Shown here one piece after another: positions 9,401 through 28,209 of a stretch of DNA of 64,000 nt. This DNA comes from Kondoa subrosea. Lineage: Eukaryota. The notes under the pieces are model-generated. The model was given only the letters and a program-made list of their open reading frames with translations. It did not search any database and was not told the DNA's origin. The stretch is from the NCBI GenBank assembly GCA_039545335.1, contig BCIN01000009.1, forward strand, positions 124,001 through 188,000, in the 5' to 3' direction. Within the stretch, counting starts at the first letter, position 1. Each line of letters begins with the position of its first letter. Made by a program: the position numbers and the translations under genes.

Positions 9401-10127
9401 ATGACATTGGCCAGAGAGCTCATCACAGAGCAAGGAGACTATATTGGCTTGACTGAGGACGCTCTCAGCGAGCAGTTTTACATTGACAAATGCAGAACCT
9501 CTGCTGCTGGTGCCATTTCACTTTTCGCTGGAACTACTCGTGATTCATTTCAAGGTGTCTCTCCCTCTTGCTTTCGCTTCTAGTCCCTGTAGTGATACCC
9601 TCTTGCTTCTTATTCTTCTGTCTTTCAGGCAAACAAGTGGTTCGACTTGAATATGAAGCATATGTGCCCAAAGCCATCAAAACTTTGGCTGCTATAGCTT
9701 CGGAAGCCAGACAGCTAGCTCTATCTGGAGTCTTCTCTTCTCCTTCTCTTACAGCCAATTTACCAGATGAACCTTCTGAATCAGCTCATCCTAAACAACT
9801 CTCTTCTCCATCCGCTCTTTCGATCGGACACTCGTCTACAAGAGCAGCTAATGAGTTGCTGAAGATCGTTATCGTACATCGTCTGGGCGTCGTACCACCA
9901 GCGGAAACTTCTATTATTATTGTCGTATCATGCGCACACCGAAGATTGAGCTATGCGGCAAATGAGTGGATACTAGAAGCAGTCAAGAAGAAGGCGGGTC
10001 AGTGTCGTGTAGAATGAAGCCTGACTCGAGTTCATATTGATGGAATGGTTCAGAGGTCTGGAAAAGAGAAGTTTACGCGAGCGAAGAAGGTCAAGATGGA
10101 GCTTGGAAAGCGAATTTCCCAGTATAA
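9401..10127 (+). CDS. MOCS2: Molybdopterin synthase catalytic subunit (MoaE/MOCS2B/CnxH)
   Basis: AGAISLFAGTTRDSFQG|KQVVRLEYEAY, HRLGVVPPAETSIIIVVSCAHR and ...EVWKREVY match the MoaE family; two GT-AG introns. Confidence 0.92.
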
Positions 10128-10174: not shown

Positions 10175-10726
10175 CTAGTATGATCCACCTATATCATAGC
10201 GGAAGTATCGTTTTCCTGGTTTGCCAACTTTCTGCCACTGTAGACAACATTCGTGAGTTGCTGGTTCGCGACTCGGACGATTTGCTCACTCCTGTCCTGA
10301 TCAAAGCTTGTAGCCAGCATCCACCTAGCATGCATACAACAAAAAAGACTTCCGGTGGATTTTGGCCCCAAGGTCTATTCATCCCGGTCACGAACAGCAC
10401 ACAATTATCCCAGAATTATTCTTACCTGGTCGTGCCGTCCACATTGGTGTTCAGCGGTCTATATCCAGGCGTTCCTCTTACTGTCGGCCAATCTTCTTTT
10501 ATCCCATCCCAATTTCAGCTTCGTTCATCTTCGGATCAATCACCTTACCTGGATTGTTCCAGTGCAGATCCTCAGGTGTTGGATCCTGCTCTTCATCACT
10601 CAATATCGAGCCTTGTGTATGAGCCGAATGTTCATCAATCAGATTTCTCTCTTCCCCTCTTAGGCTCAATGATCCAACTAGACTTGACAGAGGTCTAGCA
10701 ATCGTTTCTGTTCTTGCATGAGCCAT
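10175..10726 (-). CDS. Small uncharacterised protein (~125 aa, 4 exons)
   Basis: Three GT-AG introns join MAHARTE...LHWNNP|EDWPTVRGTPGYRPLNTNVDGTT|RPWGQNPPEVFFVVCMLGGCWLQALIRTG|WQKVGKPGKRYFRYDIGGSY* in a single frame. Confidence 0.7.
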
Positions 10727-10881
10727 AGATTGACAGTAACAAGTTAAGACAGGGTTCGCGGTTTTGCTTCCGGGCAGGCGGACACCGCAGGGAGCCGAAC
10801 CCATTTGTCGGTTTTGTTCCTTTCCTGCTTCAACCCTAACATTTCTGATCTATATCATCAGTGTATCTACTTCCGAGCATC

Positions 10882-12316
10882 ATGGTGAACAAAAAACATC
10901 CTACGTGGGCTTACTTTAACCCTTCCTCTTTGATTCGCTGATAGTCATATCCAGGCCGGTATTCTTCATGAGCCACGGCTCAACGATGATGATGGGCGAA
11001 GCATCCAAACCAGCTGAGTTCTGGCGAAGTGTAGGAATCGAAGCCAAAAGAAGGGGAGTGAAAGGTCAGCGTAGAATTAGCCTGGTTCAAGTTCCTATTT
11101 AACTTATCCGATGGACACAGGCATTGTTTGGCAAGGCGCACATTGGGAAGTTTCTGGTGAAGGATTCGAAATCGCCGCGAATCCTGGTGTTTGCAAGAAA
11201 CAGCCTGTCAGTTGGGTTCATCCGAGCAAGGTTGGTCCAGCTTTTCCTTGTTCTCCGTAGGTATTGACGGGCATCAACAGTATCAAGACTTTGAGATAGT
11301 CTGCGATCCGAAACTTGCGAAACGAGTACAAGGTCTGCTGCAAGACAGGGGCATTCCCGCTAAGCTGAACGAGAATGTCGAGTGTGAGTATTGTGGCAGT
11401 TACAAACTCCCGATATCTTGCTGATGACAATCTGTGCAGGGGTTCACGATGTCTTCTTGGTTCTTCGCTGGATGTTTGGCGATAAAGTAAGTCTGTAAGC
11501 ATTTCATACTGAGTAAAGTTCAAGTTCATTTTCAGGGACCTTCCCTACCATGTACTTTGATTTCAACGAACGCATACTACGATCCATGGAAGGTGAGCTT
11601 TGCGCTCTAAGACAATGGTTCAAACTGATGCACGGGTAGAACATTGATGTCGGAGCTGCTTGTCGACCACTGAGATACGAGAACATCCTGTTGATTGGCA
11701 CAGGCGGAGTAGTGCACAATCTTTACCGGAATAAATGTATGTGATACTGTCCTTCAACTGATGTATGTTCTGATCACAATCTTACTTAGGGTCAAATGTA
11801 GATAATTCGCGAATTGCTTTGTTTTCCGGCTGATGAGCATATAGATCGTACTCTACCGGGATAATTTCGCGCAACAACGAGCGCCAGATGCTTTCGCTTT
11901 GGATTTCCGGACTGCAGCAGAGGATGCTTTGACGAAGAATACTGTCAGGCGATCAGACTGGCTGTATAAACTATAGCTGACTCTCATCATCACAGGGTCC
12001 TGCTCTTCGTCGAGCAGCTATGCGCCTCATGTCTCATCCACTCTTTAGAGAGGCTCATGGAACAGGTAACGCTCACACATACTCAGCAATCGGCCGAAGC
12101 TGATATTGTATAGATGATCACTATGCGCCCATTTTATTTGCTGCTGGTGCAGCTGGATCGGAAGAGGATGTTGGTACCAAGAACTACGCTCCTGCAGAGT
12201 GCTGGGAGTTGATCAAGTGAGTTTCAGACACTTTTTGCTGCTGGATGGTGATTGACCAGTCGTTTAGCATGGCGAATACACAGCTGCAGTTCGGCGACTG
12301 GGATCCTCAGCAGTAG
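10882..12316 (+). CDS. LigB-family (type II extradiol) aromatic ring-opening dioxygenase; ~10 exons
   Basis: PVFFMSHGST, QGAHWE, GTGGVVHNL and AHGT|DDHYAP motifs carry the His ligands of the LigB/DODA-like family. Confidence 0.9.
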
Positions 12317-12540
12317 AAGGTGTAGGATTGCAATGCCAAACGCGGGGTCTCCATATGCCTTTAATCCTGCTCCTTTCATGTATTTGCTCTCGCAGCATAA
12401 GTCTACGGACGGCTCATCTCACGGTGCTTTGCTATTGACAATTGCTGTGTGTCTATGTAATTATCAGCATTTTCAGGCTTTCGCTCGTCAAGAGTGTACT
12501 ACCAGTGTTTGCTTCTTGAGCCTGCGTCATACACCTCTGG

Positions 12541-15500
12541 ATGTCTTCCAGCTCTGGTCCTCCCTTCTGTTGTGCATTCCCTGGCTGCGCCAAGAGCTAT
12601 CTTCGGCCAGAACATCTTACTAGGCAAGGCTTGAAATAATAGGGCAAGCTCGAAGCTGATTCTGATTGCTTAGACATGCTCGGTCGCACGAGGACGAGAA
12701 GCCATTTGGGTGTGATAACTGCGAGAAGCGCTTTACCAGGTCGGTACAGATGTCCTTGTTATAAACATGCACATTGATTGTGCCGGCTCAGGCGCGATGT
12801 GCTGGTGCGACATCAGAAGCAACACAACAAAGATGATGTGGACCCATCTGAACGGAGATCTGCGGCATTGAAAAGAGCCAAGCGAGCCTGCAAAGCCTGT
12901 GGTACTGCGTGAGTGCATTCTCATCCAGCCTATGATCAGCTGAACCGTGTTCTAGTAAAGTCAAGTGCGACGGCAATCAGCCATGTGCCAGGTGTATCAG
13001 CTCGAACAAGCAATGTATGTACAACCAAGTACTCGAAGCAACTCCCTCGAATAAAAAGGCTCGGCTGGACCTGAATCAAAACTCCTATCAGATGATGGAC
13101 TACGCACCTGATTTACCAGTAGCCAGTACATCAGCAATTCCTATAATGGATGCCAATATTCAATCTTATGCCTATCCCATGTTGCCATCAACGTCTTTCG
13201 ATGGCTCTGTGCAGCCTAGCCCTCCTTCAATGTACGGTAATGGCTTTTCGAATGATTTCGATATCAACTCTCTCCTATTCGGAAGATCAGAATTGTATGC
13301 AAGCAATGCTGCAAGTACGAACAGTAATGACTTCAATTCACCGCAAAATTTCCTCAATGTCGATTGGAACGACTTCTTGACTCAAGCTGCCGATCGTGAC
13401 ATCGCTGCCTGGCCGAAGCAACCTGAAATTTTGACAACCAATCCCTCTCCAGCAGGATTTGCAGCAGACAACGCGCAGCCATTCGTCGAAACTCCCGATA
13501 CACGCAACGTGGCCTTTGGGTTGGCGGCTGAGCCCGATGGTATTCAACCCATTACCGAATCAAACGATCATGTAGCCGCCAGCAGTCTGCTTGAGCTGAG
13601 ACGGGAACTGCCTGCATTGCAAGATGGTCTTAGGACTCGAGCACCTTCTCCGACGCCAGAAGAGCAACCAAGACAAGGCTTATGGCCAACGAGCTGGGAG
13701 CCAGGTTCAGGCACCTTGGCAGATTACTACAAGTATAAGCATGTTCAAGGTATACAGAACGAGTCAGGTACGAGTCGAGATTCGCAGTCTCTGTCGCGAT
13801 CCTCAATATGATTTGACAGACAATTACGCTCACCGCAGTGATCTACCCATTTTCAGCGAAGAATCCCGTTTGGCGGTCATTGAACTCCTTCGCTTCGCGG
13901 AGTTTACTATGGAGGTCTATCATCGACTATTCGTGACTCTATCTCGGATGTAGGTCACCTTTATCTGGTCAGCCCGAAAACTCTTAAGGTCGAGCAGATC
14001 ACTTTCAACCTTTCAGCACTTTCTCGATCTCTACTTCGTACATGCGCACCCGTATTTGCCCTTCGTTCGTCTCCTATATCCAAAGATCATGCCTAGTGAG
14101 CTGACTTTTCCCACAGTGTCATGTCCCTACGTTCGACACGAAGCGCACGTCTGGCTTTGTAGTCGGTGCTATGCTGGCCCTCGGTGCTCGATATTCACGT
14201 CTCAAGGGTTCTGATCCGTTGGCTGATGTTTTGAGCGATATGGTGTCGAAGAGTCTTGGAAACTGCATTACATCAGATCATGTCCTGGCTCGAGACATTC
14301 AATTACAACGGGCAGCAATTCTTTGGAGCTTACAGAGATCAAGTGGAAGCCGCAGATTGATGGAGATAACCGAGGTATTACGAGGAACGCACTGCGTTGC
14401 TTTGCGACAATTGCACTGTTTTGATGACTCCATCCAAATGCCTCGTCTTGTCTTCGATCAATCGGTGCCGTTGGAGAAGAGATGGAAGACATGGATCGCT
14501 TGGGAAGGGAGAAGACGCTCTGGCTTCGCTGCCTTTCTGTCCGATGCGGACTTCACAATCTTTCTCGGTCGGCCTGCTATAGTTCTTCCGTGTGTCCCCA
14601 CTGCCTGTAATGATATTTTTCTGATAATTCCAGCAGTCAGGATATATCAGCAGTTTTGCCGAGCAGCGACGCCCTGTGGGATGCCAAAACTGCCGAAGAG
14701 TGGCATTCATTGTCTCATCTACTCTCTTACGCGGATAGCAAAATCTCGGCATCTTCCATCTTGGATTACACGGCTTCACAAGACATTTTGATTCGACAAG
14801 CTCGCACTTCAAGCTTTGGATCAATAGCTCTGGTTCTCATGCTCAACATTGCTTTGTCAGTCCATTTCATCAAACCGGACGTGTCTCATTCTGTTTATCA
14901 TCAGGTGGTCTTTACGGCAATCTGGACGCTTTTCCAAATCGGTCTGGAAAGTTGTGCGATCGGATATCAAGCAAGCTTTACTGGCACTTGGTTCTGGCGC
15001 CAATGAATTCATACCGTATTCTGCAAATGATACGGTCGCTTCAGCTTCCTTCGCCATTGTGAGTTCTCGATACATCGATTGACGCTTTACTGACAGGTCA
15101 TTAAGCTTTACCATCAAACACATATAGCTCTCAGAATTACTTCAACTGTGATACTCGCAGCTGCTGGGAAAGAAAGTGCAAACGGTGCAAACGCCGCGCG
15201 AAAAGAGGTGTGTCCATTGCATCTTGCTCGGCTCATTGCACCTAAAGCAAGTCTAGATCATCAATCTCATGACAGCAGAGCCCGTCGCCGCTCGAGAAGT
15301 GGCTCTGCATGCTGCGCAATGCTTTCGCCTTATCCGTGACAAGGGTTCTGAAAACGGCATTGAATGCTTCTGTCTCTTTTTCAGCGCCATGGTTCTCTTT
15401 CTTTATTCGCAGCTGCCACGTATCCCTTCAGAGGATGCACTGGACGAAGGGCACTTGCTCAGTATCAATTTGGATTGTGAAAAAGCCTCGTAATCCAATC

Positions 15501-15765
15501 ACTCTATTTGGCTAGCCTTTCGCTGACTGCTTATCAGTGCCTTTGAACTCGATTGGGTCAGCTCAGGATTTGGGGAACCTAAGTTGGCTGGGGCTGTACT
15601 TGAGCCGATGTCGGTACTTAGACAAGCAATCGATATCTTCGACGCTCGCACTAGCTGGGTAAGCTTTATCCACTCTGTGGATAATGTGTATTGAGTTACA
15701 TCGAACAGGGACTCAATGGCAGCCTCTCCAATATTCTGCAAGCTATAGTCAACGAAGGGCAATGA
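12541..15765 (+). CDS. Transcription factor with 2 C2H2 fingers, a Zn(II)2Cys6 cluster and a fungal-specific TF domain
   Basis: CAFPGCAKSYLRPEHLT|RHARSH, CDNCEKRFTR|RDVLVRHQKQH and RACKACGT..KVKCDGNQPCARCISSNKQC; WKTWIAWEGRRR and LPSSDALWDA in the middle homology region. Confidence 0.9.
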
Positions 15766-15804
15766 CAAGCAGTATCATCAATTGCATGTACACATTAAGA
15801 ACCT

Positions 15805-16649
15805 TCACTGTATCACCTGTCCATCTTTCATCTTGTCTACATAGCCAATTTGTCAGATCCGAAAGGACATTGAGCATCTGTAACTTACATCCTGCATCTC
15901 CTAGCTCTTTCTGCAAAGAAACCATGAGTATAAGTAATGTCAAGAAAAGATGATGCGTACGCCTTGGATGACCAGAGGCTTACTAGCTTGCAGTATGAAG
16001 TAAATTCTTGCCCATCGATCAGTCACATTGTTCCACTGGAGAAAGTAGTCAGCTGTCTTCTTTTAGGCATCCGAGTCGAGACTGACTCCGTGTATAGTTC
16101 CTCTCTGGACTACAACATCGCCCTTCTTCATTGGTACTTCCACTCCGTCGTCCAATATCAGATTGCATTCGCCTTCGGTAACGATGCCGAAGTCTAAAGA
16201 CTGAGTTCGATGAAAGGGAGAAACGCTATTAGCTGATGGAAATGATCAGGTCGGCACAAATACTGTAAATGGATCAGACATACGTGGACAGTCTACGACT
16301 CTTAGAATCGTCCCAGCTTCGTTACTGAGCTTGTTTCCAGTTTCGCTTAACGCAAGATCTCGAGTATCTGAGTTATCGTAAGGCATGGAGTCGGTAGTGA
16401 AGATGTGAGCGAATCTTGAAGCAAATCAGCAATCAACACCTCGGCTGGGATCTGGATTGATTACCTTGCAGAGGCTCCATCAACTGTTGAGACCGGCTTG
16501 GCTTCAATTGTATCGTCTTTCCAGCTGTTAACATATCAGCTAGGGTATCAATGAGTTGGGGAAAACACCCACACAATTGCTTTACCGTTCGCGTCATGAC
16601 CTGTAAGAACGCGCCGGATTTGAAGAGGGAGATCAGCTGTTGCAGACAT
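15805..16649 (-). CDS. Cupin-domain protein (RmlC-like cupin_2); multi-exon
   Basis: Spliced MSATADLPLQIRRVLTGHDANGKAI...GTILRVVDCP...SPFHRTQSLDFGIVTEGECNLILDDGVEVPMKKGDVVVQRGTIHGWNN, the typical small fungal/bacterial cupin motif pair. Confidence 0.85.
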
Positions 16650-16822
16650 TTGGATGACACGTAGTAGATGAGAATAACAGAGCTAGTAGTCTTAAAGCAA
16701 CAGGAATAAAAGAGGGAGGAGAACAGGAAGAACATTTGAGCAGGATTCGGGCGTGTGGATTGATAACTTAGAACGGTATGAGAGGAAGTGCTCGGTACTG
16801 CTACAGCTAAAGATCGAATATC

Positions 16823-18553
16823 ATGATGGCTTGGATTTCAGTACCAGAAGATAGCGATTTCAGCATTCACAATATTCCTTTTGGAGTGATCTCGAGCAGC
16901 CAAAACAAGACTGGACGAACAGCTACGCGTATAGGCGACAAAGTCATTGATCTGAAGATCTTGGCCAACAGTGGCTTGCTATCCGACAAAGGAATAGAGG
17001 AGGCCTCATTGGAAGCCTTGAAACAAGTTTGTTAAATTTCTTGCATAGTAGGTCCACGCTGACTCGAAGGCTACAGGACTCTTTGGCTGCATTCGCTGGT
17101 CTGTCCGCTGCCCAAAGGCGGGCTGTGAGACTGCAGATTCAAGCGACGCTGTCTGGGAAGAAGCCAGACAATTTTCCAGATGATGCGATATTGGATGTCA
17201 GCAATGTCAAGATGCAGCTGCCCATGCGAATAGGCGATTACACAGACTTCTGCATTGCCAAATGTCATATGGACAATACTTCGTGAGCCAACTTAGTCGT
17301 ATTCCTGCTCGTATTCTCATTACATTAACAAAGACGTGCGGTTGGTGACGGTTCAAGCCCAGCCCAAATGCCTTACATGCCCATCGGTAGTTCCTGTTCT
17401 GTCAATCTCACGCCTGAGCTCATGACTGCTGCAGGATATCATGGGCGAAGCTCTTCCGTCGTTGTTTCTGGTATTGACTTCAAGAGACCTTGGGGTCAGT
17501 TCCGGGTCAAGCCTTCAGATACCGTATGAATACCCTTTACTTTGTATACGCCAATCGCTGACCATTCCTTGCAGCAACCTGTCTTTGAGCCGAGCCGAAA
17601 GTTGGATTATGAAGTAGAGCTAGCATGCTTTGTTGCTCGAAACACTGAATTGGGCGAGACTATTGATATCGCTGAAGCTGAAGATGCGATCTTCGGTGTT
17701 GTACTCATGAATGGTGATTGCTTCTTTACTTGGCATACTGTTGAAGCTTATTCGGGTTGAATAGATTGGAGTGCTAGAGACATCCAAGTCTTCGAGATGC
17801 CACCTCTTGGGCCATTCCAAGGTATTCCTTCCGAGACTCTATAGGTGAGCAAAGCTGATATGATTGCACAGGCAAGAACTTCTGTACCACAATCAGTAGG
17901 TGTTGTCCTATCTTCCAATTTTGCGCTGATCGACTTCACTCAGGCCCTTGGGTTGTGACTCTTGATGCGTTACGGCCCTTTCGTGCACCTCTGCCTCCTC
18001 GATTACAACCAGAATTCGACTACTTGCACCTGGAGAAAGACGGCGAATCGGTAAACCAATGTCTCGATATCAATCTTTCAGTTGAGATCAAGAGCGCAAG
18101 TTTGTCCCTACCTTTGTCCATTGCATTCTTTCTCGTCGTTGATAAATGCTCTTTAGCTTCTACCTTTTCTGTACCAAACATCAATGCCAAAGATTTCTAC
18201 TGGTCACTCGAACAGCTTTTGGTTCATCAATCCATTTCGGGCTGCCCAGTTGCTGTTGGTGATTTGATTGCAACTGGTACATGTAGTGGACCAAGGGAGG
18301 ACACGCTCGGCTGTCTTGTCGAATTGAGTCAGGGCGGGAGGAAACCATGGAAGATGGCAAATGGAGAAGAAAGGACCTTCCTTCTTGATGGCAAGTCGAA
18401 AGGCTTCACAATCTAAAGCATGGAACTTATTGTCTGTATTTGTGTATGATTACAGGCGACGAAGTTGTTATGAGGGGATATTGTGCGAAGTCTGGTGTGC
18501 GTGTAGGGTTTGGTGAATGTGCAGCAAAAGTTTTGCCTGCGGATAAGCGGTAA
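16823..18553 (+). CDS. Fumarylacetoacetase (FAH)-family hydrolase
   Basis: SDFSIHNIPFG, IGDYTDF, GYHGRSSSVVVSG, LDYEVELA, NDWSARDIQ..PLGPFQGKNF, GDLIATGTCSG and GFGEC motifs. Confidence 0.92.
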
Positions 18554-18705
18554 CTTTGTATCCTGTAGTCTGCGAATGCTATCTTCTTCTTCCTCGGAAC
18601 ATTATACACCTGACTCGCGCTTTCATTGGTATCAGGAGATCAACCTCGCCTGAGTGATGGGTGCGATTACGACACAGAATCATAACAATACATTGATGAT
18701 CAAAG

Positions 18706-20546
18706 CTAGACTCTCCGGAAGAAGCGATACAATGAATACCCTGTGAAACCAGTGACACTCAAAATGGTCGACAAAACCAAAGCTAGGGAAAGGAAAAGAC
18801 CCTGGAACAAATATAAATGACGATAAGCTTGCCCAGAGAAATGTGCTTACCTGCAAAAAGAAAACCCGACGTATGATATTGGCATGTGGTTTGAGCTTGA
18901 TTTGCAGTTTTGACTGAAAGTCGGGCAGCAACACCTTCTGCATTGTAGCCACTTTCCATGAAGCATACGGTGGGAAGATAGCGGAAGCTTCGGAGGAACC
19001 AGGCGCATGGACATAGATAGGGCGCTCGAACATACTGGAAGTCCATCGTCCTGACAGTGCTGCCGGTCCTTGAGGAGGATAGACACAGACTGAGACAAGG
19101 ATCAGACTTGTCTAAGATCTTGATGACTGTGCTTACCTAGTCCGTCCAGAGGGATATCGTTCGAGTACATTACAGCCGGACGCAGTTCAGTTGCAAAGTA
19201 ATCACTGACGCAAGGTATGAGCTCTATTTTTGTGGAAAGAAATGATCTTACAGCTCCAGCTGGCTGGCGAAGATACTCAGTGTATGACCCAATCTACAAC
19301 AACAGATGAGCAAGACTCGATAAAGTAGACTGAAACGCACCTTGCAGATGCAATCTTGATGGCTTCTTCCGTACTTGAAAACGACACGACAGGCAAAACG
19401 CATCCTTCGATCCGTTGATCCAGCATTCGAGAATCACCAGAAACATTTTCAACCACTGTAGGCGCAGACACATTTCCATCCTGCTCAATTCGACCACAAA
19501 CTATCTTGGCAGCACCCAAATCACCCAAAGAAACTTTCTGATTGCCTATAGCCACATCTGATCCCGCAGCAGAAAGCTCTTTTGCAGCTTCAACCAAATG
19601 TCGAACAAGCTCATCGTGCAGTTCTTCATGAACGCAAACGAAAGACAATGCTCCGAGACTCTGACCACCAAAAGCGCAGAATTTAGCTCGCGCGACGAGC
19701 TTAGCGATGCGTTGAAGTTCCGCCGTGGGAGTTGTCTTTGAGACTATGCATAAATTTTGAGCTGAAGGTTTGGCGGTTGCTGGCAGAAGATGGAAAGGAG
19801 AATTTGTATCTGCAGCTGATCGGGCAATTTCTCTTCTAAGGTTGAGATCAGTTGAAGTTGCGAGGTAGACATCGAAAGAGTGACACAAAGCAGCCTTCAT
19901 GGTTGCATCATCTGAACAGAGAATAGGATAGGCGTCTCGATCAAGAAGAGGATAGATATGCCGAGTGATTAGCTCGTGAGTAGCTTTTGCTTCTTTCGGC
20001 AGCTGTGAAGCATGAGTCAGGTAAAATACAATATGGAGGAAAGGATTGCGAACCAAAGTAAGAACAACATTGCCCGCCGCAATAGCCGAAGCAAGAGGTG
20101 AGATCGTACTTTCCAAAGGTGCTATAGTAGACGATGAGCTGGGCTGTCTAATATCAGACAAACAAGACGAACCTGTCTTGTGACCAATGATTATAAGACT
20201 ACCATAAGGCGTAAGGATCTTTCCTCCGGTACGATGTTTCGCGACTCTCTCGGCCAAATTTTCGAAATGCGTGTCTTCATACTGCAAACGAAGCTGCTGA
20301 AGGACTAAGGAGACTTCCAGGTTTGCTTCGAATTCAGGCTTGCCAGTATCTTGCTGCAGAGCTTTAATGAAACCGGTCTTGTATTCACTCATGATATCTA
20401 GAGTAGGTGAATCAGTACCAGGTTTGACTGCAGTCACAGAGCGGACTGTATAAGGTCATAATCTGCCTCTGCCGGTAACGCGGAAATGTTGCGCGACCAT
20501 CGATTCGGCATTCTCGCAAGTGTTGCAGCGCGCTTTCGACTTGCAT
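18706..20546 (-). CDS. Aldehyde dehydrogenase-like protein (degenerate active site) with C-terminal membrane anchor
   Basis: ALDH-fold landmarks PLASAIAAGNVV, APTVVENV and IEGCVLPVVSFSSTEEAI; ends in the hydrophobic tail FFLQ|GLFLSLALVLSTILSVTGFTGYSLYRFFRRV*. Confidence 0.8.
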
Positions 20547-20718
20547 TTGGATGGTGCGATTGACAGAGTATTAGCAAAATAGACAAGAAAACCAACAAGG
20601 TGAGGAAATGATCCGGAATCTCAGTATCCGATCCCACTTGCCAGTGATGGGTGCCGATTGCCTAGCGCATTCTTATGTTGTAGTCGCGCTTAGCACATTG
20701 CTTTAGCACATTGCCAGT

Positions 20719-23700
20719 ATGAGTGAAGTCAAGAATGCAATCCGTACGATAGAGACAGACGAAGAGCATGATATGATCGTCGAAATAAACACAGACATAC
20801 CATTGTCTGGTGACGGCGGTAAGCAAACCAGCAAAGCCACAAGCAATCACTGATAGAAAAGAACAGGTCCAGGTCTAGCAAGATGCAACGTATACAGACC
20901 AAAAGCAACGGAAGCAGGCGCAAAATTTCCGGTCATCTTGGTCAGTTCATCAGAGGGCAGTTCCAAGCATGGTTACTGACTCTCGTTGTCTTAGACTATG
21001 GGACCTTGTAAGAGAAGCAAGGATTCGGAAGAGCGTTGAGTCGCTAATCTGTGTAAACAGACGGCAAGGATATTCCTTATGAAGACTTTCACGGCAAGAG
21101 CTTCGCAGGTCAGTCGTTCGCAGCTGTTTGAGACACGAATTCTAACTTCTTCTTCGAAAGATGTACGGAAATACGCTCCGGAACAGACTTCTAAGGTGAG
21201 AGACATCAGCTCTTAAACATCATATTGAGATGCTCAACATTGTATATCGCAGTGGAGTGCTTGGGAAACCCCTGAACCTACATTCTGGACAAAGCATGGC
21301 TACGTTGTTGTTCGCGTTGATGAGCGAGGTCTCGGTCAATCTCCTGTATGTCTCTCAGTTTTTCAGAGACGTACAAGCCTGATTAGTTATTCTCTGTCAA
21401 GGGCTTCATGGATACTATGAGCAACTCTACGGCTGCAGATTTCGCTTGCTGTGTCGAATGGGCTTCTGCGCAGTCTTGGTCGACCGGCAAAGTTGGTCTT
21501 TTAGGAGTGAGCTATTACGGAGGATCACAATGGAGAGTCGCAGCCCGTCAACCCAAGGGTCTCGCGTGCATAATCCCTTGGGAAGGAATGTAAGTCAGCC
21601 TGACAAGCAATCATCTGCTTTAGCTGACCATCGCATTAGGTCGGATTATTATCGCGATAGATGCCGTCAAGGCGGTATCTACTCCAATCAATTCGTAAGT
21701 ACATATTCCGAGTCAAAACCCTTTCTGAGCATATGGATACCTGTCTTCCAGATCAAGTTCTGGCAAGATCGTCAGGTCCACTCCGCTCAATACGGGTTGC
21801 CTGGCAGAGCTGCTCGCAAATGGGGACCAGATACAATTGAAGGAGATCTTACGCCTGAAGAATTAGCAAAGAATCGGACGGATCAAATTACCGATAACGC
21901 TGAGAACCGCTTCACGGATGATCCGTACTATGCTTCGAGGGAATATGATAAAGGCAAAATCCAAGTGCCACTACTCAGTGTCGCTAATTGGGTAAGCCGC
22001 TGAATTTGCAAGGGGCTTCTCGATCTCACCTGAAGGTAGGGTGGAATTCTTCTTCATCTTCGAGGAAATGTTCTTGGCTATTCAGAAGCTGGCTCTGCTA
22101 AGAAATGGCTGTACTTCATCACTGGTCGACATGATCTTCCATTCTACCTTCCCGAGTACGTTGCTTTACAAAAGTCATTTCTGGATGCTTTCCTCAAGGG
22201 TGAAGACGACAAGGTGAAGTGTTATCAGGCTATTCCATTCTCTAGACTAATTTCATTGGGACAGGGATGGCTCAAGGGACCGAATGAAGCTGTTCCAGCT
22301 ATCAATGTTCTGATTCGCAAAGGCACTCCGGGATTCAATACTGTCGAAGCTGATCGTACTTTCAAGACCCGAGAAGCATCAGCGTGGCCTCTTCCAGAAA
22401 CTCAATATACCAAATACTATCTTTCTTCTGACCTCAAACTTTCTGTATCGCAAGACACTTCAGAAGATAGTCAGCTGGAGTATGAGGCTCTGACTGGTCA
22501 ACCTTTTAGTTTCTCTACGCCAGCTTTCGAAGAAGAGACGGAAATCACTGGTCATATCACTGCAAACCTAGTGATGGGTGTGAAAGGTAAGCTAAACATA
22601 TGCAAGCGAGTGTAAGCTGAGTCGCCTGCTTACATAGCTTCGGCTGGAAAAGAAGCACCAAAAGATCTAGACGTTATGGTCACGTTGCGGCACTTCGATA
22701 GGGACGATAAGGAAATTTTCTATACCGGTCAGTCTCGCAATGTCTGGAAAGGCTACGATCTAATATGCTTGATAGGTACTGCTGGTGATCCGGTTCCGCT
22801 CTGTAAAGGTTTCCTGCGGGCTTCTCTTCGCGCTATCGATACTTCAGATCCTCGTCACCGTGATTATATACCTTTCCGAAAATACGCCAGCACAGACGTC
22901 TCTTATCTCGACGCTGAGAAACCTCACGATCTTCTTGTTGAAATCTGGCCTACCTCTGTTGTTGTTGAGCAGGGTAGTCGTATTGTTTTCGAAGTACGCC
23001 AGACCTTTTCTTCGATCCGCTGTGACTGAGTCAGCCTGATTAGATCTCGCCTGTCGATACTCAAGGCTGTGGCATCTTCGGTCACAATCATCCTCAGGAC
23101 CGCTCAACAGAAACCTTTGGAGGTAAGAACATTATCTACTTTGGTCCAAAACACGAAAATTGGGTTTCCTTGCCTATCATCCGCAAGACTGGCAATGCCG
23201 AATCCTCCATTGCTGTCGCAAATGGATCAAATCCATTCCGCGTCATCATAGTCGGTGCCGGTCTTGCTGGCTTGGCTGCAGCAATTGCTCTTCGAGGCAA
23301 AGGTCGCCAGATTACTGTCCTTGAGTCGAGTCGCATGAAGACAGAGATTGGTGCCGCAATTCATTTGGCACCTAACGCAACCAAGATTTGTGAGCAGTGG
23401 GGTTTGGATATCGAGAGTATGTGCTATCTGACACATGGCGTTCTTGATCTCGCTGAGCTTACTGACTTTCTAGCTGCGGCACGAGCTACAGTCTGCAGAG
23501 GCTTGAGCGAGATCAGCTCGGATGGTATTACCCGCTTCAAGATGCCCATTGACGCGAAGAAATTTGTTGGCGCTGTGAGTCTCGCCACATGCACTTCGTG
23601 CATAGGCTGACCGAGACCACAGCACTGGCTGCTCAATCATCGAGTAGATTTGCACAATGCTTTCCGCGACTTTGCTATAAAGGAAGATCGCGAAGGCCAA

Positions 23701-24926
23701 GCTGCGAAGATTATTACTGCAGCAAAAGTCGTCTCGGTCGATTGCGAAAAGGGAATAGTCAAGACTGAAGATGGTCAGACATATGAAGCTGATCTCGTTA
23801 TTGGAGCAGACGGGTAAGTCTTCGCCTCCAATATGTTATACTGGCTTAAAAGTTGTGACAGTATCCATTCGCCTGTTCGAGAAGCTGTTTTAGGGGAAGT
23901 CAGAATAGCTCAACCTAGTGGTCATTCGGCATATCGAGCTCTGATTCCGAAAGAGAAGCTGCTAGATATTCCAGAAATTGTTAATGATGTTCTTCAACAC
24001 GAGAATGGGCATATGAAGATGGTAGTTGATAAAGATAGACGAGTCGTGAGTCAAAACACTCATGAGGTCTTCCATACTAACATATCAGCAGATCTTGTAC
24101 CCTTGCAGAGAAGCGAACGTTCTGAATGTGTAAGTTTTGAGGCTTTGATATGAACTCACTTGAGGCTGATCACCTTTCAGTGTTGCTATATGTCCTGACA
24201 GTGAGTACCTTTTCCGTTTTCCGACTCCGAAAACTGTTCTGAAGCACCTTCAGCTTTGATGCGGGAAGAAGCCTCCCAATCTTGGAATCAGCCCGGTGAT
24301 GTCGCGGAACTCGTCAAGACCTATTCGAATTTCCCCCAATGGCTACAGACAACATTGTCTAGAGCTGAATCGTGCGGACTGTGGCAGCTGAGAGACCAAG
24401 ATCGACTTCCGACCTGGGTCAAAGGTCGTACTATATTGATTGGAGACAGTGCCCATGCAATGCTGGTCAGTACTGCCGGTACTAAACCTGTCCTCTGCTA
24501 ACATATGAATTTTCGTCTACAGCCGCATCAAGGTCAAGGTAGATCGATATCCGAGAGCCTATTCGACTACACTAATGCATTTTCAGGGGCTGGGCAAGGA
24601 GTTGAAGATGCAGAGGCATTGCAAGCATTCTTCGAAGGCGTCGACCATGCCATCAGCGCCGAAGAGGTCAACAAACGTTTGCAGCAGGTCTTTGATTGCC
24701 GTATCGATCGAGCTTCTACCATTCAGCAATACAGTAGACAGCAAGCTAGACCTCCTAAATCAACAGAGCAAGGTGTAGCCCTGGACAGTGCTCAATTCTC
24801 TCAGTATAACTTTGGGTCAGTGAGCTGATTCTTTCATCCGGTGCTGGAAACTGATTCATGGGCCGCAGGTATAAGGGTGCGAAGGAGTGGGTCTCGAGAA
24901 CCCAGCCTCCTGCAGCTGCTGCATAG
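20719..24926 (+). CDS. Fusion protein: CocE/NonD (S15) serine hydrolase + FAD-dependent aromatic monooxygenase (salicylate hydroxylase-like)
   Basis: Hydrolase motifs MGPYGKD, WETPEP, VDERGLGQSPG, GVSYYGG, IIPWEG and HLRGNV run in frame into VIIVGAGLAG, EIGAAIHLAPN, DLVIGADG and LIGDSAHAMLPHQGQGAGQGVED. Confidence 0.85.
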
Positions 24927-25606
24927 TAATGAATACCGCTTATTGTATTACCCAAGGGGTTCATGTAACAAGTCTCTCTGCTTCGCACGAAAGCTAGCGA
25001 TTCTCGAGCTTCGCCTTATGTCACTTGTCACAGTCAGCCAATCTCGAATCAATGTACTTTGTTCACAGCTTGGCACTCAGAAGTAATTTGATCATGAACA
25101 GTTCGAGCTCGCATTTTTTTTGCACGGGTCGACCAAGTCAACGAAGGCCTTCTGTGACTGCGAACTGTTCACGTACAGAGCTTTGCTCTGCGGTCATCTC
25201 CTTCTCTATATATCTATGCATGTTGTTGGCTCTACTAGTATTTTTTTTGCTTGCACCTTGCTTTTGTATATATGAACCTCTTGAATGTCTCCGGTTTCGC
25301 GAACAAATTGCTGCGATTGAAAGTGTGGGTACACAATGGAGCACATCATGTTGCTCACTTCTCCGGCTGTTGAACATCAGGGTACTTGACACGCTTATGT
25401 ATTTCTTCGACGTGATTACTGTCTGTGGACCTTGGAGACTCTCGGTGCACGTGCACAAGCTCTGCGTATCAAGCTACTGCTTCCTGTTGGCTTTCAAGTC
25501 GGCTTTCTCTGTTTTAGCCTTTTCGCCCGCACGGACCCACCAGGCCTTGAAAGCTTCGGTTGCGTTCTGGCTTTCTCTCATACCAGCGCAAGCGCACACA
25601 GTAAAG

Positions 25607-28006
25607 ATGTCACAGCCCGGACATGAAGAATTAGAGAAAGACACTTTCGAGATGGTTTGTCGTCGCGATCTCTGCCTCATGTAGATTCCCCTCATCTTCC
25701 TTGATTGCAGCGAGAAGAGCACTCTGGCAACGATCTTTCCCATTCCTTCACAGCTGGGAGTGAGCAGATGGCTACCGTCGCGCCGGTGAGTGTTTCGCCT
25801 TCTTGTTCCACCTTTCTGAGTAATGTAGGATATCACGCTCCGCGCTATGCTGGTTACTGCAGCCGCTGGCTTCTATTGGATCGGCATGCTGTACAATCTC
25901 ATCAGTTTAGCGACCTACAGCAGGAACATCGCTTCAGCTTTAAACGACTCAACTCGTGCGCCTTGGATTTTGAACGCTTTCAATGTTGTCACAATTGTCT
26001 TTGCGCCCATTCTCTCATATTGGAGTGATCTTTTTGGTAGAAAATGGATCATCGTTGCCAGTCTGCCACTTGGAGTTGTGGGCGGAATCATTGGATGTCG
26101 TGCTACATCTGTAAGCCGCTGATCGGAGCTTTGGTGCAAGACTGACAGCAGCTACAGGTCACTATGGTCATCGTTGCGACATCGTTCCTCGGAATCTCAG
26201 GATCTCTATTGGGCGTCGTTACATCAATTCCTTCCGAAGTTCTCCCACATCGATACAGGGCAAGCGGTCAAGCCGTAGTCTCTGCCCTTTCGATAGCAGG
26301 CGGAGTGGCAGCTTTGCTAGGCCCCGCAAGCGCTATTCGCAAAGATCCCGTCGATGGCTGGCGAACGATCTTCTATTCCTTGATCGGCATTTGGGGCGTT
26401 CTTTGTGTTATTTGGCTAGTAGTCTACAACCCACCTAAAAGGCAAACTTTCCTTACACAAGATCGGCCATCACTTGATTATATTGGATATGTGTTGCTTG
26501 CAATTGCCACTGTCCCCTTTCTATTGGGTCTGGTGAGTGGACTCTTAAATAGCCACTCTCATGCATTGATGGAATTTTCCTCCATGATAGACTTGGGGTC
26601 AGCATTCAATTCTTGATCTATTGTATCGGCTGACCAGTCATCTAGGTGGTAATGCTTATCCTTGGAAGTCTGCCCATGTTTTGGCCCCCTTGATTGTTGG
26701 TCTTGCGCTCTACGTGGTCTTCGGTCTCTATCAGTGGAAAGCAAGGAGCGATGGTCTGTCTCTATGATAGCTCTGTGTTCTAGGCTGATATCAGAACAGG
26801 TCTTTTGCATCATGGGCTGTTCAAGAATCGCAATTACCCACTTTGCATCATTGCAATAGCTGTGGAAGGCTTCGTGTATCAATCCTTCAGTTACCTTTAT
26901 CCGGCAAATGTAGCGACGGTCATTCAACCAGATATTTATCTGGTATGCTCGGTGTACCTTCTTCCAGCAGAGTTCTCACTGCGTACCTCAGGGAAATCAA
27001 AGAGTTCTTCCGTTCTATGGCACCTTCTTAGTTTCCTTGTTGATAGCATCCTTCTATGTGGTCAAGACTCGAGATACAGTCGTAAGCCTTTTGTATCCCT
27101 TCTACGGTCTTTCCTTGACCTGAGAAATACCTGCAGACGCCAATTCTAGTTGGCTATATCTTCCTCACTGGTGCTCTTATCGGTCTCGCCCTCTCTACAC
27201 CTTCCACACCTAATCTACATATCGCAATGAATGCTCTTGCAGGATTGGGCTTCGCTCTCCCCTTGTGTTTCCTTACCGTTGTTGCCCAATTTGCTGCACC
27301 TGCCGCCCTGATAGGTAAAAAATAACTCTTCCCGTTCACGATTACTCTCGCCAATTCTTCATGATAGGAACATCAACAGCTATAGTCTTGACTTGTCGCA
27401 GCTTGGGAGGTGCAGTAAGTTCATGTCCGACCATACTTTGATCCAACTAATGCTCTGCGATTGCTGCAGATTGGAATTGCCGTAACTTCTGCCGTTCAGT
27501 CGAGCAAACTTAATCAATACCTTCCTGCGTATATTGCTGCTGGTAAGCCCGAAGTAGCCGTTCACTAAGTTGTCAGCTTACATTACTTTAGCAACTCTGC
27601 CTCTTGGTCTCAATCCAGCTCTACTAGGACCGGTCATTGGCGCTGCTGCTTCAGTAAGCTGTCTCAAACATATCAAATCATCACTAAACCTTTTCTCTAG
27701 CATGATCCTACTCTTGTAGCACAAGTCAGTCACATTCCTGGCATCACTCCTCAAATTCTTGGAGCCGCCTATGGTGCAGCTGCCGAAGCTTTCTCTAAAA
27801 GCTTCAACATGGCCTTTTGGGTTGTTGTGGCTCTGAGTGCCATGGGCGGACTTTGCATCCTTTCCTTGAAGCGAAATCGCGAGCAACTCGAGTGAGTTTC
27901 CTCATCTGATCTCTGTAAAGTGATTACTAATCGCTTGAGCAGCTACATCGTTGATGCCCCTATTCAGCCTATACACCATAATAAGGCAAGGAAGGAGCAG
28001 GTTTGA
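25607..28006 (+). CDS. MFS transporter (TRI12/Str1-like 14-TM efflux family); many exons
   Basis: WSDLFGRKWIIV MFS motif A, IPSEVLPHRYR, GWRTIFY, YNPPKR, LDYIG and HHGLFKNRNYP, with multiple hydrophobic helices. Confidence 0.88.
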
Positions 28007-28209
28007 GGTGGTGTGTGATGGTTGTTGCTGTAGTATCTTGTACCCTTCTCACTTTTTGGAATTCCATGCGCTGCTGTATTGATGTGTGTATGGCGATCCG
28101 CTTTTGCGCGACTGTTATCTTTCACGCTTGAGTCTGACTTCATGTGCTTACGTTATCAAAGTTGTTTCTTTTCCTGAATGACCGACAGTCTCGCCAGAGA
28201 CCGCCATCT

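Follow-up and report, generated by a model that had tools for sequence, protein, structure and literature searches.

A CocE hydrolase–flavin monooxygenase fusion in a Kondoa subrosea copy of a conserved fungal gene cluster proposed to act on plant phenolics by meta-cleavage

Does a run of genes for aromatic metabolism in the basidiomycete Kondoa subrosea form a functional unit, and on what might it act? The block lies in contig BCIN01000009.1, within a 64,000-nucleotide stretch (the window, to which all positions refer) of fungal DNA rich in short introns (40-60 nt). The initial annotation described it as a self-contained cluster of eight contiguous genes encoding a complete route of aromatic ester or amide catabolism. 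Gene models were generated with a self-trained splice-aware finder and then rebuilt manually against relatives; Pfam scores given for genes of the window are exon-level scores. Seven of the eight genes are confirmed in place by the rebuilt models, their original family assignments hold, and no housekeeping gene is interspersed among them. Housekeeping genes are present at both flanks (ribosomal S9 and MoaE on the left; a helicase, a choline transporter, RNase PH and a kinase on the right), and therefore the limits of the block stay as first drawn.

The exception is the small unknown protein at the left edge, an unspliced ORF on the forward strand (10180..10698) located in the 754 nt separating the MoaE stop (10127) from the LigB start. 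It encodes 172 aa from the ATG at 10180, or 200 aa from the ATG at 10096, the longer version overlapping the last MoaE exon (10054-10127). No Pfam family matched it, no relative was found among the 30 candidates of a near-length search, and none of the 80 related loci described below held a match. At -1.2 to -2.1 bits per 100 nt, its coding score falls inside the range of held-out real exons (-2.2 to +3.8). As an eighth gene it is unsupported.

The first of the seven genes (10882..12316, forward strand; 291 aa, 12 exons) encodes a LigB dioxygenase of the DODA/YgiD-type class III extradiol group. It includes an 8-nt micro-exon (11790-11797), at which the alignment to the 'aromatic ring-opening dioxygenase' P0318 of Rhodotorula toruloides (67% identity, 285 aa) is gap-free. 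Its ortholog at L045:11274-12143 scores 32.2 bits against Pfam LigB (cut-off 26.3) and resembles both E. coli YgiD (2pw6) and 4,5-DOPA dioxygenases (E 2e-12); the histidines of the SHGS, AHW, VHNL and DDHY motifs are kept. The adjoining regulator (12541..15765, forward strand; 831 aa) is of the C2H2x2, Zn2Cys6 and Fungal_trans type. Its first intron (12624-12673) is GC-AG and its 3' half is a draft model. Both C2H2 fingers and the Cys6 cluster were located in the spliced model with regular expressions; Zn_clus scores 30.6 bits and Fungal_trans 19 bits, under its cut-off of 23. The Aspergillus arachidicola protein P0326, annotated 'C6 and C2H2 transcription factor', is 32% identical over 133 aa and 25% over 440 aa in its transcription-factor part. 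On the reverse strand follows a monocupin of the 3ES1/8X0U type (15805..16649; 180 aa, 7 exons), scoring 26.5 bits at exon level against Cupin_2 (cut-off 27.2; orthologs 29-39 bits) and sharing 42% identity with the cupin end of P0238 and P0330, two Aspergillus models. Its ortholog in L011 matches 3es1 (E 8e-38) and 8x0u (E 2e-28), and the motifs HRT, EGE and H..W.N are conserved.

The FAH gene (16823..18553, forward strand; 419 aa, 10 exons, the last intron, 18391-18455, being GC-AG) encodes a fumarylacetoacetase-type hydrolase with scores of 46.6 bits for FAA_hydrolase_N and 27.6 bits for FAA_hydrolase. FAH parts that are joined to CocE or lie next to it in Colletotrichum and Seiridium share 31-35% identity with this protein, whose ortholog in L045 resembles solved fumarylacetoacetases (E 1e-83 to 1e-92). 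The next gene (18706..20546, reverse strand) is a draft model of an ALDH3-like protein of about 519 aa with a hydrophobic C-terminal tail, which scores 51.5-54.6 bits against Aldedh and is placed among Aldedh clusters of a protein atlas with very high confidence. Alignment to class 3 ALDH puts a leucine at the position of the catalytic cysteine, and the ELGG motif is absent. The cysteine is likewise missing from the relatives linked to the cluster in L004 and L011. Because the catalytic cysteine and the general-base glutamate are missing, the protein is predicted to be unable to act as a classical aldehyde dehydrogenase. The block ends with an MFS transporter (about 25607..28006, forward strand; draft model, about 13 exons) scoring 30.7 and 26.9 bits for MFS_1 (cut-off 33.4), 22.5 for Sugar_tr and 14.7-17.2 for TRI12, a profile that looks, weakly, like a TRI12/DHA2-type exporter. 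With such an ALDH-like protein and transporter, the terms 'self-contained' and 'complete route' are overstated.

Between these two genes lies the fusion of a CocE-type hydrolase with a FAD monooxygenase (20719..24926, forward strand; 23 exons, 1024 aa), whose 22 introns measure 43-57 nt and are all of the GT..AG type. Residues 1-596 form a CocE/NonD-type serine hydrolase (Peptidase_S15 and PepX_C), followed by an 18-residue linker and a group A FAD monooxygenase (residues 615-1024). The fusion can be read directly from the DNA: a single junction exon (23044..23416, forward strand, within the ORF 23044-23607) carries one open frame through the hydrolase's last strand, the linker and the GxGxxG start of the FAD-binding region, with neither a stop nor an ATG separating the two parts. 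The standalone relative P0184 stops 3 residues past the starting point of the linker. Each part aligns over its full length with proteins that stand alone: the hydrolase with fungal proteins of 575-600 aa, being 59-60% identical to those of R. toruloides and Aspergillus, and the monooxygenase with proteins of 412-434 aa, being 42-48% identical to P0002/P0304 of R. toruloides (48.5% to P0304). Two very large protein searches found no fused relative. The two enzymes are thus predicted to be translated as one polypeptide, among the searched proteins in this genome alone. In the catalytic triad of the hydrolase, the acid residue could not be placed.

Relatives of these genes recur together in other fungi. 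Among 80 related loci, 25 fungal-type metagenome contigs carry a relative of the hydrolase (best segment at least 44% identical), and on them we found the cupin 12 times, LigB, the transcription factor and the monooxygenase 8 times each, the ALDH-like gene 6 times and FAH twice. Counting the five partners of enzyme type (cupin, LigB, monooxygenase, FAH, ALDH-like) and leaving out the transcription factor, 17 of the 25 contigs have at least one and 11 have two or more, whereas 14 flanking housekeeping ORFs used as a control gave no match in the 25 contigs and one in all 80 loci. The MFS transporter, on 2/25 contigs, is not a conserved member. Pfam analysis of four 20-kb loci gave the same family set plus Zn2Cys6 factors, and an acetoacetate-decarboxylase-like (ADC-like) gene, absent from this window, stands beside the monooxygenase in L001, L004 and L011. 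In named genomes, the R. toruloides hydrolase and LigB have consecutive accessions (EMS24073, EMS24074) and are merged into a 935-aa model in one annotation; FAH and hydrolase are consecutive in Seiridium cardinale (KAM0813753, KAM0813754); models of Aspergillus section Flavi join hydrolase and cupin, to which A. arachidicola adds the 'C6 and C2H2' factor. Among the best 120 of 2256 hydrolase relatives, FAH domains occur in 5 and Cupin_2 in 1. The monooxygenase of R. toruloides and Meredithblackwellia lies about 8-24 accession numbers off the hydrolase and does not adjoin it, and those that adjoin the hydrolase in other loci are 26-38% identical to the one described here and may belong to a different subfamily.

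In this basidiomycete, the block represents a cluster that is conserved in both Ascomycota and Basidiomycota. The core consists of the CocE/NonD-type hydrolase, the DODA/YgiD-type dioxygenase, the 3ES1-type monocupin, the ALDH3-like protein and the C2H2 plus Zn2Cys6 regulator; the group A flavin monooxygenase, the fumarylacetoacetase-type hydrolase, the ADC-like protein and MFS transporters are variable members. Lack of conserved co-localisation elsewhere had been named at the outset as evidence against a cluster; the search found the opposite. Because relatives co-localise in many fungi, against none for the 14 control genes, the reading of these genes as a putative functional unit is supported. 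The cluster is widely conserved yet uncharacterised.

A bacterial operon has the same companions around a dioxygenase of another fold (VOC-type rather than LigB). In the loci examined (L042/L040; Terripilifer, Caballeronia and Paraburkholderia) it comprises a TetR regulator, a FAD monooxygenase, a VOC-type extradiol dioxygenase, a CocE-type hydrolase, a TRAP transporter and the cupin family of the fungal cluster, the hydrolase standing between dioxygenase and cupin. Hydrolase, monooxygenase and dioxygenase occur together in only 5 of the 80 bacterial loci with this cupin family, and therefore the family is much broader than the pathway. That the block is a chance neighbourhood of unrelated genes is very improbable: that no promoter word common to at least four of five upstream regions was found speaks for it, but partners recur on 17 of the 25 contigs against none for the controls, and the association reappears in named genomes of two phyla and in the bacterial analogue.

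We consider it fairly probable that the cluster degrades or detoxifies a plant-derived phenolic by meta-cleavage, the window holding a conserved fungal copy, here with the fusion. The monooxygenase would hydroxylate beside an existing hydroxyl to give a catechol-type ring, which the LigB enzyme would open in extradiol fashion; the serine hydrolase and FAH would cut the resulting ester, lactone or diketo-acid products, the cupin may act on a later intermediate, and the clustered regulator would turn the genes on. What we infer here is the substrate, the order of the reactions and what the cupin and the ALDH-like protein do, and the inconstancy of FAH and monooxygenase (2/25 and 8/25 loci) counts against the proposal. 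The E. coli mhp and hpa systems resemble this route in using a flavin monooxygenase and then a LigB-superfamily extradiol dioxygenase (MhpB, HpaD), with later hydrolase, FAH-family and ALDH steps. They differ in being bacterial operons, in relying on MhpC, which is a classical alpha/beta C-C hydrolase, and on HpaE, which is an active ALDH, and in having neither a CocE-type hydrolase nor a 3ES1-type cupin.

The initial annotation was also right to separate the block from gentisate catabolism: it is not the known fungal gentisate (GC) cluster (Greene et al. 2014, PMC3914699), with which it shares on paper an ALDH, a salicylate-hydroxylase-type monooxygenase, a cupin, a C6 regulator, a FAH-family hydrolase and an MFS transporter. 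The GC cupin is the bicupin gentisate 1,2-dioxygenase, whereas the one here is the 180-aa monocupin; the GC cluster has a stilbene dioxygenase and lacks both LigB and a CocE-type hydrolase; and, unlike in GC, FAH here carries a fumarylacetoacetase N-domain and the ALDH-like protein no catalytic residues.

The order first proposed, with ester cleavage leading, is one option among others, since both the bacterial analogue and flavonoid pathways put the hydrolase after ring fission. In this order, the CocE part would de-acylate an aromatic ester or amide (a depside, benzoate or hydroxybenzoate, for example), the fused monooxygenase would hydroxylate the freed phenolic acid, perhaps decarboxylatively, LigB would open the ring and FAH would cleave the fission product. 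Two activities on one chain suit consecutive steps (Rosetta-stone logic), and a different hydrolase::monooxygenase fusion, P0033 (Abhydrolase_3 and FAD_binding_3), exists. Cocaine esterase, a benzoyl-ester hydrolase, is among the solved relatives of the hydrolase (E 1e-23), but no substrate is known for 3ib3, the nearest solved structure. For the monooxygenase relative P0006, the closest solved structures are decarboxylative hydroxylases of free phenolic acids (vanillate 1-hydroxylase, 4-hydroxybenzoate 1-hydroxylase, salicylate hydroxylase), which points to simple phenolic acids over flavonoids as putative substrate. However, the fusion is limited to this genome among the proteins searched, the two genes elsewhere being divergent neighbours or many genes apart; the hydrolase gene of the bacterial operon sits between those for dioxygenase and cupin; and the nearest characterised relative of the monooxygenase takes flavonoids, not acids. 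We regard an ester-first order as rather unlikely.

That relative is RgF8H of Rhodotorula glutinis, a naringenin-induced flavonoid C-8 hydroxylase (PMC9422121, available in part), linked to our protein through its R. toruloides ortholog P0002/P0304; the N-terminal part of its cDNA in the supplement, translated and compared by eye, appears close to P0002. RgF8H is a standalone enzyme of about 410 aa, whereas here the domain lacks its own start codon and is fused behind the hydrolase. It suggests a specific form of the meta-cleavage proposal, possible though doubtful, in which an 8-hydroxyflavonoid or isoflavonoid is formed and LigB cleaves ring A. Release of a C4 acid and opening of the remaining lactone would then fall to FAH and/or the CocE-type hydrolase, and the cupin would take the remnant, a pyranone or lactone, in the manner of the bacterial fde (Herbaspirillum) and ifc (Variovorax) clusters. 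As far as the accessible parts of PMC11069340 describe them, bacterial flavonoid and isoflavone clusters hold a FAD 8-hydroxylase, an extradiol dioxygenase, a hydrolase and cupins, and fde and ifc share a logic in which the monooxygenase yields an ortho-dihydroxy A ring for extradiol opening and hydrolase and cupin proteins process the remnant. This likeness is one of enzyme class: their dioxygenase is VOC/glyoxalase-type rather than LigB, and the ifc hydrolase is DHPON-hydrolase-like rather than CocE-type, its knock-out being without effect. The ADC-like gene adjoining the monooxygenase in three fungal loci recalls a decarboxylation proposed for the naringenin route (PMC10755750); the same source, in the portion available, states that reports of full flavonoid scaffold degradation had come from bacteria only and that Penicillium rubens showed no syntenic cluster. 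A literature search over titles and abstract openings found no relevant report of a fungal flavonoid catabolic cluster. Against this form, the window has FAH and no ADC-like gene, and 42-48% identity to the RgF8H ortholog, being below 50%, would leave the substrate unfixed.

Within the meta-cleavage proposal generally, the closest fungal gene sets come from two ascomycetes, where they were noticed from expression data alone, with function unassigned in the available portions of the reports (PMC3091685, PMC5722872). 'Cluster 2' of Grosmannia clavigera combines an S15 peptidase and a ring-opening dioxygenase with a PutA-like dehydrogenase, a cupin, an SDR and an unknown protein, and three of its members were seen only in pine-phloem-extract libraries (PMC3091685); in Bipolaris cookei, Bc_04816 (ALDH), Bc_04818 (dioxygenase) and Bc_04819 (S15) have 67-79 reads in planta, during sorghum infection, against 0-3 in vitro (PMC5722872). 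By annotation, Grosmannia 'cluster 2' and Bc_04816-Bc_04820 share with the block an S15/X-Pro dipeptidyl-peptidase-type hydrolase, an aromatic ring-opening dioxygenase and a weakly matching ALDH/PutA-type dehydrogenase, and Grosmannia also the cupin; unlike the block, neither set, in the portions of the papers available, lists a monooxygenase fusion, FAH or C2H2 plus C6 regulator. Judged by annotation, they are probably the same cluster. Induction of such genes in planta or by phloem extract also fits tolerance of defence compounds, and the block could instead serve detoxification and export, or tailoring, with the enzymes modifying a toxin of plants or microbes, for instance a lactone, and the TRI12-like MFS exporting the product. 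The weak TRI12 resemblance and the up-regulation of a LigB-type gene by the lactone patulin in Sporobolomyces (PMC4784387, seen in part) agree with this, but we consider it improbable: the MFS occurs at 2/25 loci, the long ORFs of the window include no biosynthetic core gene (PKS, NRPS or terpene synthase), the bacterial analogue has an uptake system (TRAP), and a ring-opening dioxygenase accompanied by a FAH-type C-C hydrolase is catabolic chemistry.

The initial annotation had read eight contiguous genes at 10175–28006 of the window. Seven of these are present in the order proposed, with no unrelated gene between them, and the eighth, a small ORF, is not counted here. The seven are a LigB dioxygenase (10882–12316, plus strand, 291 aa), a regulator with two C2H2 fingers, a Zn2Cys6 cluster and a fungal-specific transcription factor domain (12541–15765, plus), a cupin protein with a single cupin domain (15805–16649, minus, 180 aa), a fumarylacetoacetase-type hydrolase (FAH) with N-domain and catalytic domain (16823–18553, plus, 419 aa), an aldehyde dehydrogenase (ALDH)-like gene in draft model (18706–20546, minus), a CocE hydrolase::FAD monooxygenase fusion (20719–24926, plus, 23 exons, 1024 residues) and an MFS gene (about 25607–28006, plus). 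The small ORF between the MoaE and LigB genes is unspliced and 172–200 aa long. It has no Pfam family, no relative among the 30 candidates of a near-length search and no counterpart in any of 80 related loci, and its coding score is overlapped by the scores of held-out real exons; it could be an orphan gene. The MoaE gene (molybdopterin synthase large subunit) occupies 9401–10127 in three exons, and its last exon (10054–10127) overlaps, in a different reading frame, the 226-aa ORF that had been taken for the small gene.

The DNA of the window is fungal and rich in short introns, and stop-to-stop ORFs are gene fragments whose Pfam matches fall on pieces of genes. A self-trained splice-aware finder followed by manual correction against relatives was used for model building. 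The finder was restricted to bounded regions; a run on the whole window merged adjacent genes into mega-genes. A codon-usage gene finder was too weak for the window and was dropped. Single exons served as queries in outside searches, and full-length comparisons were made by script. The hand-checked introns, which cover the LigB, cupin, FAH and fusion genes, the first three introns of the regulator and the first of the ALDH-like gene, are 43–65 nt long and have GT..AG ends with two GC-AG exceptions; longer introns are present in uncorrected draft parts of the regulator (76, 184 and 77 nt) and of the ALDH-like gene (136 nt). One GC-AG intron (12624–12673, donor GCAAGG) interrupts the first C2H2 finger of the regulator and the other (18391–18455, donor GCAAGT) is the last intron of the FAH gene. 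Both were kept in the models because conserved protein motifs would otherwise be out of frame.

The first hint of a cluster shared with other fungi came from the best 120 of 2256 hydrolase relatives, where FAH domains are fused in five and a cupin in one; these additions are homologues of the window's own FAH and cupin. A metagenome scan with the hydrolase alignment yielded 80 loci, in 25 of which the best segment shares 44% or more identity with the window hydrolase, and the inspected loci among the 25 carry fungal Zn2Cys6 factors. Relatives of the cupin are present in 12 of the 25 loci, those of the LigB protein, the regulator and the monooxygenase in eight each, and that of the ALDH-like protein in six. 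Counting only enzyme-type partners (cupin, LigB, monooxygenase, FAH and ALDH-like), 17 loci contain one or more of the five and 11 contain two or more, and among the 14 loci of at least 7 kb the cupin is found in nine and LigB in eight. Six of the eight loci with no enzyme-type partner are shorter than 5.3 kb and two are longer (L002 and L049). The 14 housekeeping ORFs of the flanks that served as a control had no match in the 25 loci and one generic kinase match in the other 55.

Named genomes agree with this picture. In Rhodotorula toruloides the hydrolase and LigB accessions are consecutive in several annotations, EMS24073 and EMS24074 being one such pair, and merged in one, and in Seiridium cardinale hydrolase and FAH are consecutive genes. 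Models from Aspergillus section Flavi (protein records P0238 and P0323–P0330) join hydrolase and cupin, and the A. arachidicola model among them (P0326) adds a 'C6 and C2H2 transcription factor' resembling the window regulator. Long models from Colletotrichum and Seiridium (P0259, P0268, P0279, P0296, P0302 and P0335) join a CocE-type hydrolase to a fumarylacetoacetase. Since a second S. cardinale annotation splits hydrolase and FAH, some of the long annotated models are probably merged neighbours and not true fusions; the genes are adjacent either way. The earlier claim that these genes form a cluster, for which conserved co-localisation in other genomes was to be decisive, is thus borne out. 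FAH and monooxygenase turn out to be variable members, being present in two and eight of the 25 loci respectively. In three fungal loci the FAD monooxygenase has an acetoacetate-decarboxylase (ADC)-family gene as its immediate neighbour (L001:6456-7388, L004:6113-7108 and L011:14950-15780). This gene is absent from the window, where no ADC-like, VOC, histidinol-dehydrogenase-like or DUF3533 gene was found.

The LigB protein is 67% identical over its full length to an R. toruloides 'aromatic ring-opening dioxygenase' (P0318). Single exons of the window reach at best 13.1 bits (E 0.05) against Pfam LigB (PF02900, cut-off 26.3 bits), and the orthologs of loci L045 and L011 score above the cut-off (32.2 and 28.0) and those of L004 and L001 below it (24.7 and 24.1). 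The L045 ortholog, whose gene is free of introns, has matches to E. coli YgiD (2pw6, E 2.2e-12) and to plant 4,5-DOPA dioxygenases (8in2, E 2.7e-12). Judged from these similarities, the LigB protein is a member of the DODA/YgiD branch of the LigB superfamily. The His residues of the SHGS, AHW, VHNL and DDHY motifs are kept in every aligned row covering them, and we presume that the metal-binding His residues are among these. The gene contains a micro-exon of 8 nt (11790–11797) between introns of 53 and 47 nt, which the R. toruloides ortholog confirms by aligning across it without a gap. The donor of the 47-nt intron, GTAGAT, is unusual and recurs in the fusion gene at 24539. A model with a single 145-nt intron and no micro-exon was rejected; the R. 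toruloides and L045 proteins align across the disputed 15 residues.

At the exon level the FAH scores 46.6 bits for FAA_hydrolase_N (cut-off 25) and 27.6 bits for FAA_hydrolase (cut-off 23.9). Its 419-aa model, aligned with that of L045, retains the motifs TDF..H, DYE.E, DWSARDIQ and GKNF, whose residues we take to serve in metal binding and catalysis, and the L045 protein matches solved fumarylacetoacetases at E 1e-83 to 1e-92. An ortholog of the cupin is closest to two structures of unassigned role, 3es1 (E 8e-38) and 8x0u (E 2e-28), and matches bicupin dioxygenases at E 0.03 or weaker; a literature search for PDB entries 8X0U and 3ES1 found no paper. In the fungal gentisate cluster of Greene et al. 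(2014) the ring-cleaving cupin is a gentisate 1,2-dioxygenase, whereas the cupin of the window is a 180-aa monocupin of the 3es1/8x0u type.

The ALDH-like protein matches the Aldedh fold (PF00171) at 51.5–54.6 bits. When compared with class 3 ALDH, it has Leu at the position of the catalytic Cys and lacks the ELGG motif with the general-base Glu. Its cluster-linked ALDH3-like relatives (L004:13215-14234 and L011:5383-6444) have Pro at the Cys position and have also lost the ELGG Glu, and a hydrophobic C-terminal tail is seen in the window protein and in the L011 relative. From these alignments the ALDH3-like proteins of the cluster have the look of a conserved pseudo-enzyme, or else of an enzyme that carries out a different chemistry. 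Exon pieces of the MFS gene, scanned singly, score 30.7 and 26.9 bits for MFS_1 (cut-off 33.4) and 22.5 bits for Sugar_tr (cut-off 22.3). With both Cys and Glu lost, the ALDH-like protein is not a classical dehydrogenase, and the predicted transporter is not conserved and has more of an exporter's character.

The fusion joins a CocE/NonD-type hydrolase to a group A FAD monooxygenase. In the hydrolase half, Peptidase_S15 (58.9 bits, cut-off 23) and PepX_C (38.4 and 41.4 bits on two exons, cut-off 22.5) follow one another in the expected order. Residues 1–596 show a gap-free alignment to standalone CocE/NonD-type proteins from fungi, 575–600 aa long, one of which (P0184) ends three residues past the point where the fusion linker starts. 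Of the expected Ser-Asp-His triad, the nucleophile Ser is present in its G-x-S-Y-x-G elbow and is at least 90% conserved in the hydrolase alignment, and a conserved His (GRHD) is spaced as expected; there is no Asp at the position presumed to correspond to that of cocaine esterase. A linker of 18 residues leads into the GxGxxG FAD-binding strand. The GxGxxG, DG and GD motifs are all present in the monooxygenase half, its C-terminus is conserved, and it aligns end to end with four standalone relatives of 412–434 aa. The junction lies within one open exon (23044–23416), its ORF scores 25.3 bits for FAD_binding_3 (cut-off 22), and neither a stop nor an ATG is present between the halves. Provided that the DNA is correct, the monooxygenase can, on this gene model, only be produced as part of the fusion.

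No fused relative was found in several searches. None of 34 matches to the junction exon carries hydrolase domains. In a representative library of 1.84 billion sequences, none of the best 150 of 3201 matches reaches query residues 1–46 and none lies at E <= 1e-30, and FAD_binding_3 is present in none of the best 120 of 2256 hydrolase relatives. In all of these searches a CocE::monooxygenase fusion would be masked by split gene models. In relatives the hydrolase and the monooxygenase are separate genes: several metagenome loci have them side by side in divergent orientation, and their accession numbers differ by about 8–24 in R. toruloides and by 15 in Meredithblackwellia. Among the relatives compared, the predicted fusion is seen nowhere else than in this copy. 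A metagenomic protein of 715 aa (P0033) carries an Abhydrolase_3 esterase domain and FAD_binding_3 and is, from its domains, an independent hydrolase::group A monooxygenase fusion with another hydrolase family.

A similar set of partners is present in bacteria. The operon of a bacterial locus (L042:3001-11381) comprises a TetR regulator, an FAD monooxygenase, a VOC-type extradiol dioxygenase, a CocE-type hydrolase, a 3ES1-type cupin and a TRAP transporter, and locus L040 agrees with it in hydrolase, cupin and their order; no paper on such an operon was found in the literature. The exchange of one extradiol dioxygenase fold for another while the partners stay alike is what would be expected if the two systems have ring cleavage in common. 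In a scan of bacterial genomes with the cupin, hydrolase, monooxygenase and dioxygenase lie alongside in five of 80 loci, from Terripilifer, Caballeronia and Paraburkholderia (L081, L084–L086 and L131). The cupin keeps other company in the remaining 75 loci, and its family is therefore broader than the pathway. The cupin is also present in nine of the 55 lower-identity loci of the metagenome scan, L042 among them.

Two leads to the substrate come from the monooxygenase and diverge somewhat, one towards phenolic acids and the other towards flavonoids. For a relative with 44% identity (P0006), salicylate hydroxylase and related structures give matches at E 1e-34 to 1e-61, the closest being decarboxylative hydroxylases of phenolic acids and salicylate hydroxylases, which suits the phenolic acid suggested in the initial annotation. 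A naringenin-induced flavonoid C-8 hydroxylase of Rhodotorula glutinis, RgF8H, is described in the available text of PMC9422121. The start of its cDNA in the supplement of that paper, translated by eye, is a close match, also judged by eye, to R. toruloides P0002, and P0002 and its cluster-mate P0304 are 42–48% identical to the window monooxygenase domain. By this comparison RgF8H is the nearest experimentally characterised relative of the window monooxygenase.

Bacterial catabolism of flavonoids and isoflavones, as described in the accessible part of PMC11069340, employs an 8-hydroxylase, an extradiol dioxygenase, a hydrolase step and cupins. We compared these bacterial fde and ifc clusters with that of the window by enzyme class (monooxygenase FdeE/IfcA, dioxygenase FdeC/IfcB and cupin IfcD); their dioxygenase has a VOC fold, whereas that of the window has a LigB fold. 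The naringenin route is thought, according to the excerpt of PMC10755750, to include a lactone and a decarboxylation, and a hydrolase of esters or lactones together with the ADC-like genes of the three fungal loci would fit such a route. A plant phenolic is likely to be the substrate of the cluster, and a flavonoid is the best single guess, held well short of an even chance. It is possible, and rather doubtful, that the cluster represents an ancient, widespread fungal meta-cleavage pathway for plant flavonoids or related phenolics, a counterpart of fde and ifc. In such a pathway a DODA-type LigB enzyme would take the place of the bacterial VOC dioxygenase, the CocE-type hydrolase, the 3ES1-type cupin and a catalytically dead ALDH-fold protein would act in new roles, and the fusion of hydrolase and flavonoid hydroxylase would channel two steps. 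The hydrolase, which had been placed at the start of the route, may act after ring fission rather than first. What stands of the complete route put forward earlier is its enzyme families and their clustering; the specific seven-step account is not established.

Textbook fungal aromatic catabolism proceeds by intradiol cleavage or through homogentisate or gentisate, and a conserved fungal cluster centred on an extradiol LigB enzyme would be an additional aromatic route. According to the available text of PMC10755750, reports of complete degradation of the flavonoid scaffold were limited to bacteria, and Penicillium yielded no syntenic cluster; the cluster of the window supplies concrete candidate genes for such degradation in fungi. 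Similarly annotated neighbouring genes have been recorded in two studies of fungi, which in the parts available assign them no function. In Grosmannia clavigera, three of six were found only in libraries treated with pine phloem extract (PMC3091685), and in Bipolaris cookei neighbouring genes for an ALDH, a ring-opening dioxygenase and an S15 peptidase had 67, 79 and 78 reads in planta, compared with 3, 2 and 0 in vitro (PMC5722872). Matched by annotation, both neighbourhoods are probably the same cluster as that of the window, and the induction by phloem extract and leaf infection suggests that the pathway may matter against plant defence chemicals. Nothing beyond these two papers was found in the literature on this combination of enzymes. 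The cluster type has thus been glimpsed before and never characterised, and this copy adds the fusion.

In the upstream regions, no word of 7–10 nt is shared by at least four of five, and one 9-mer is present in three of five. Its decamer form AATCCTGCTC, a word picked after looking, has 14 matches in the window with at most one mismatch against 6.9 ± 2.6 expected, a number reached in one of 100 shuffles; because of the post hoc choice it can serve as a lead and no more. Of the 14 matches, eight fall within 10175–28006, and the matches include those at 10582, 12363, 13450, 16738, 17301, 19477, 27612 and 27995. Exact copies are present upstream of the regulator and in the divergent promoter of cupin and FAH. 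To the right of the MFS gene (28140–30037) lie two ORFs without a Pfam family (29047–29712 and 29606–30037), and beyond them a minus-strand helicase with AAA_11 and AAA_12 domains (30838–31819).
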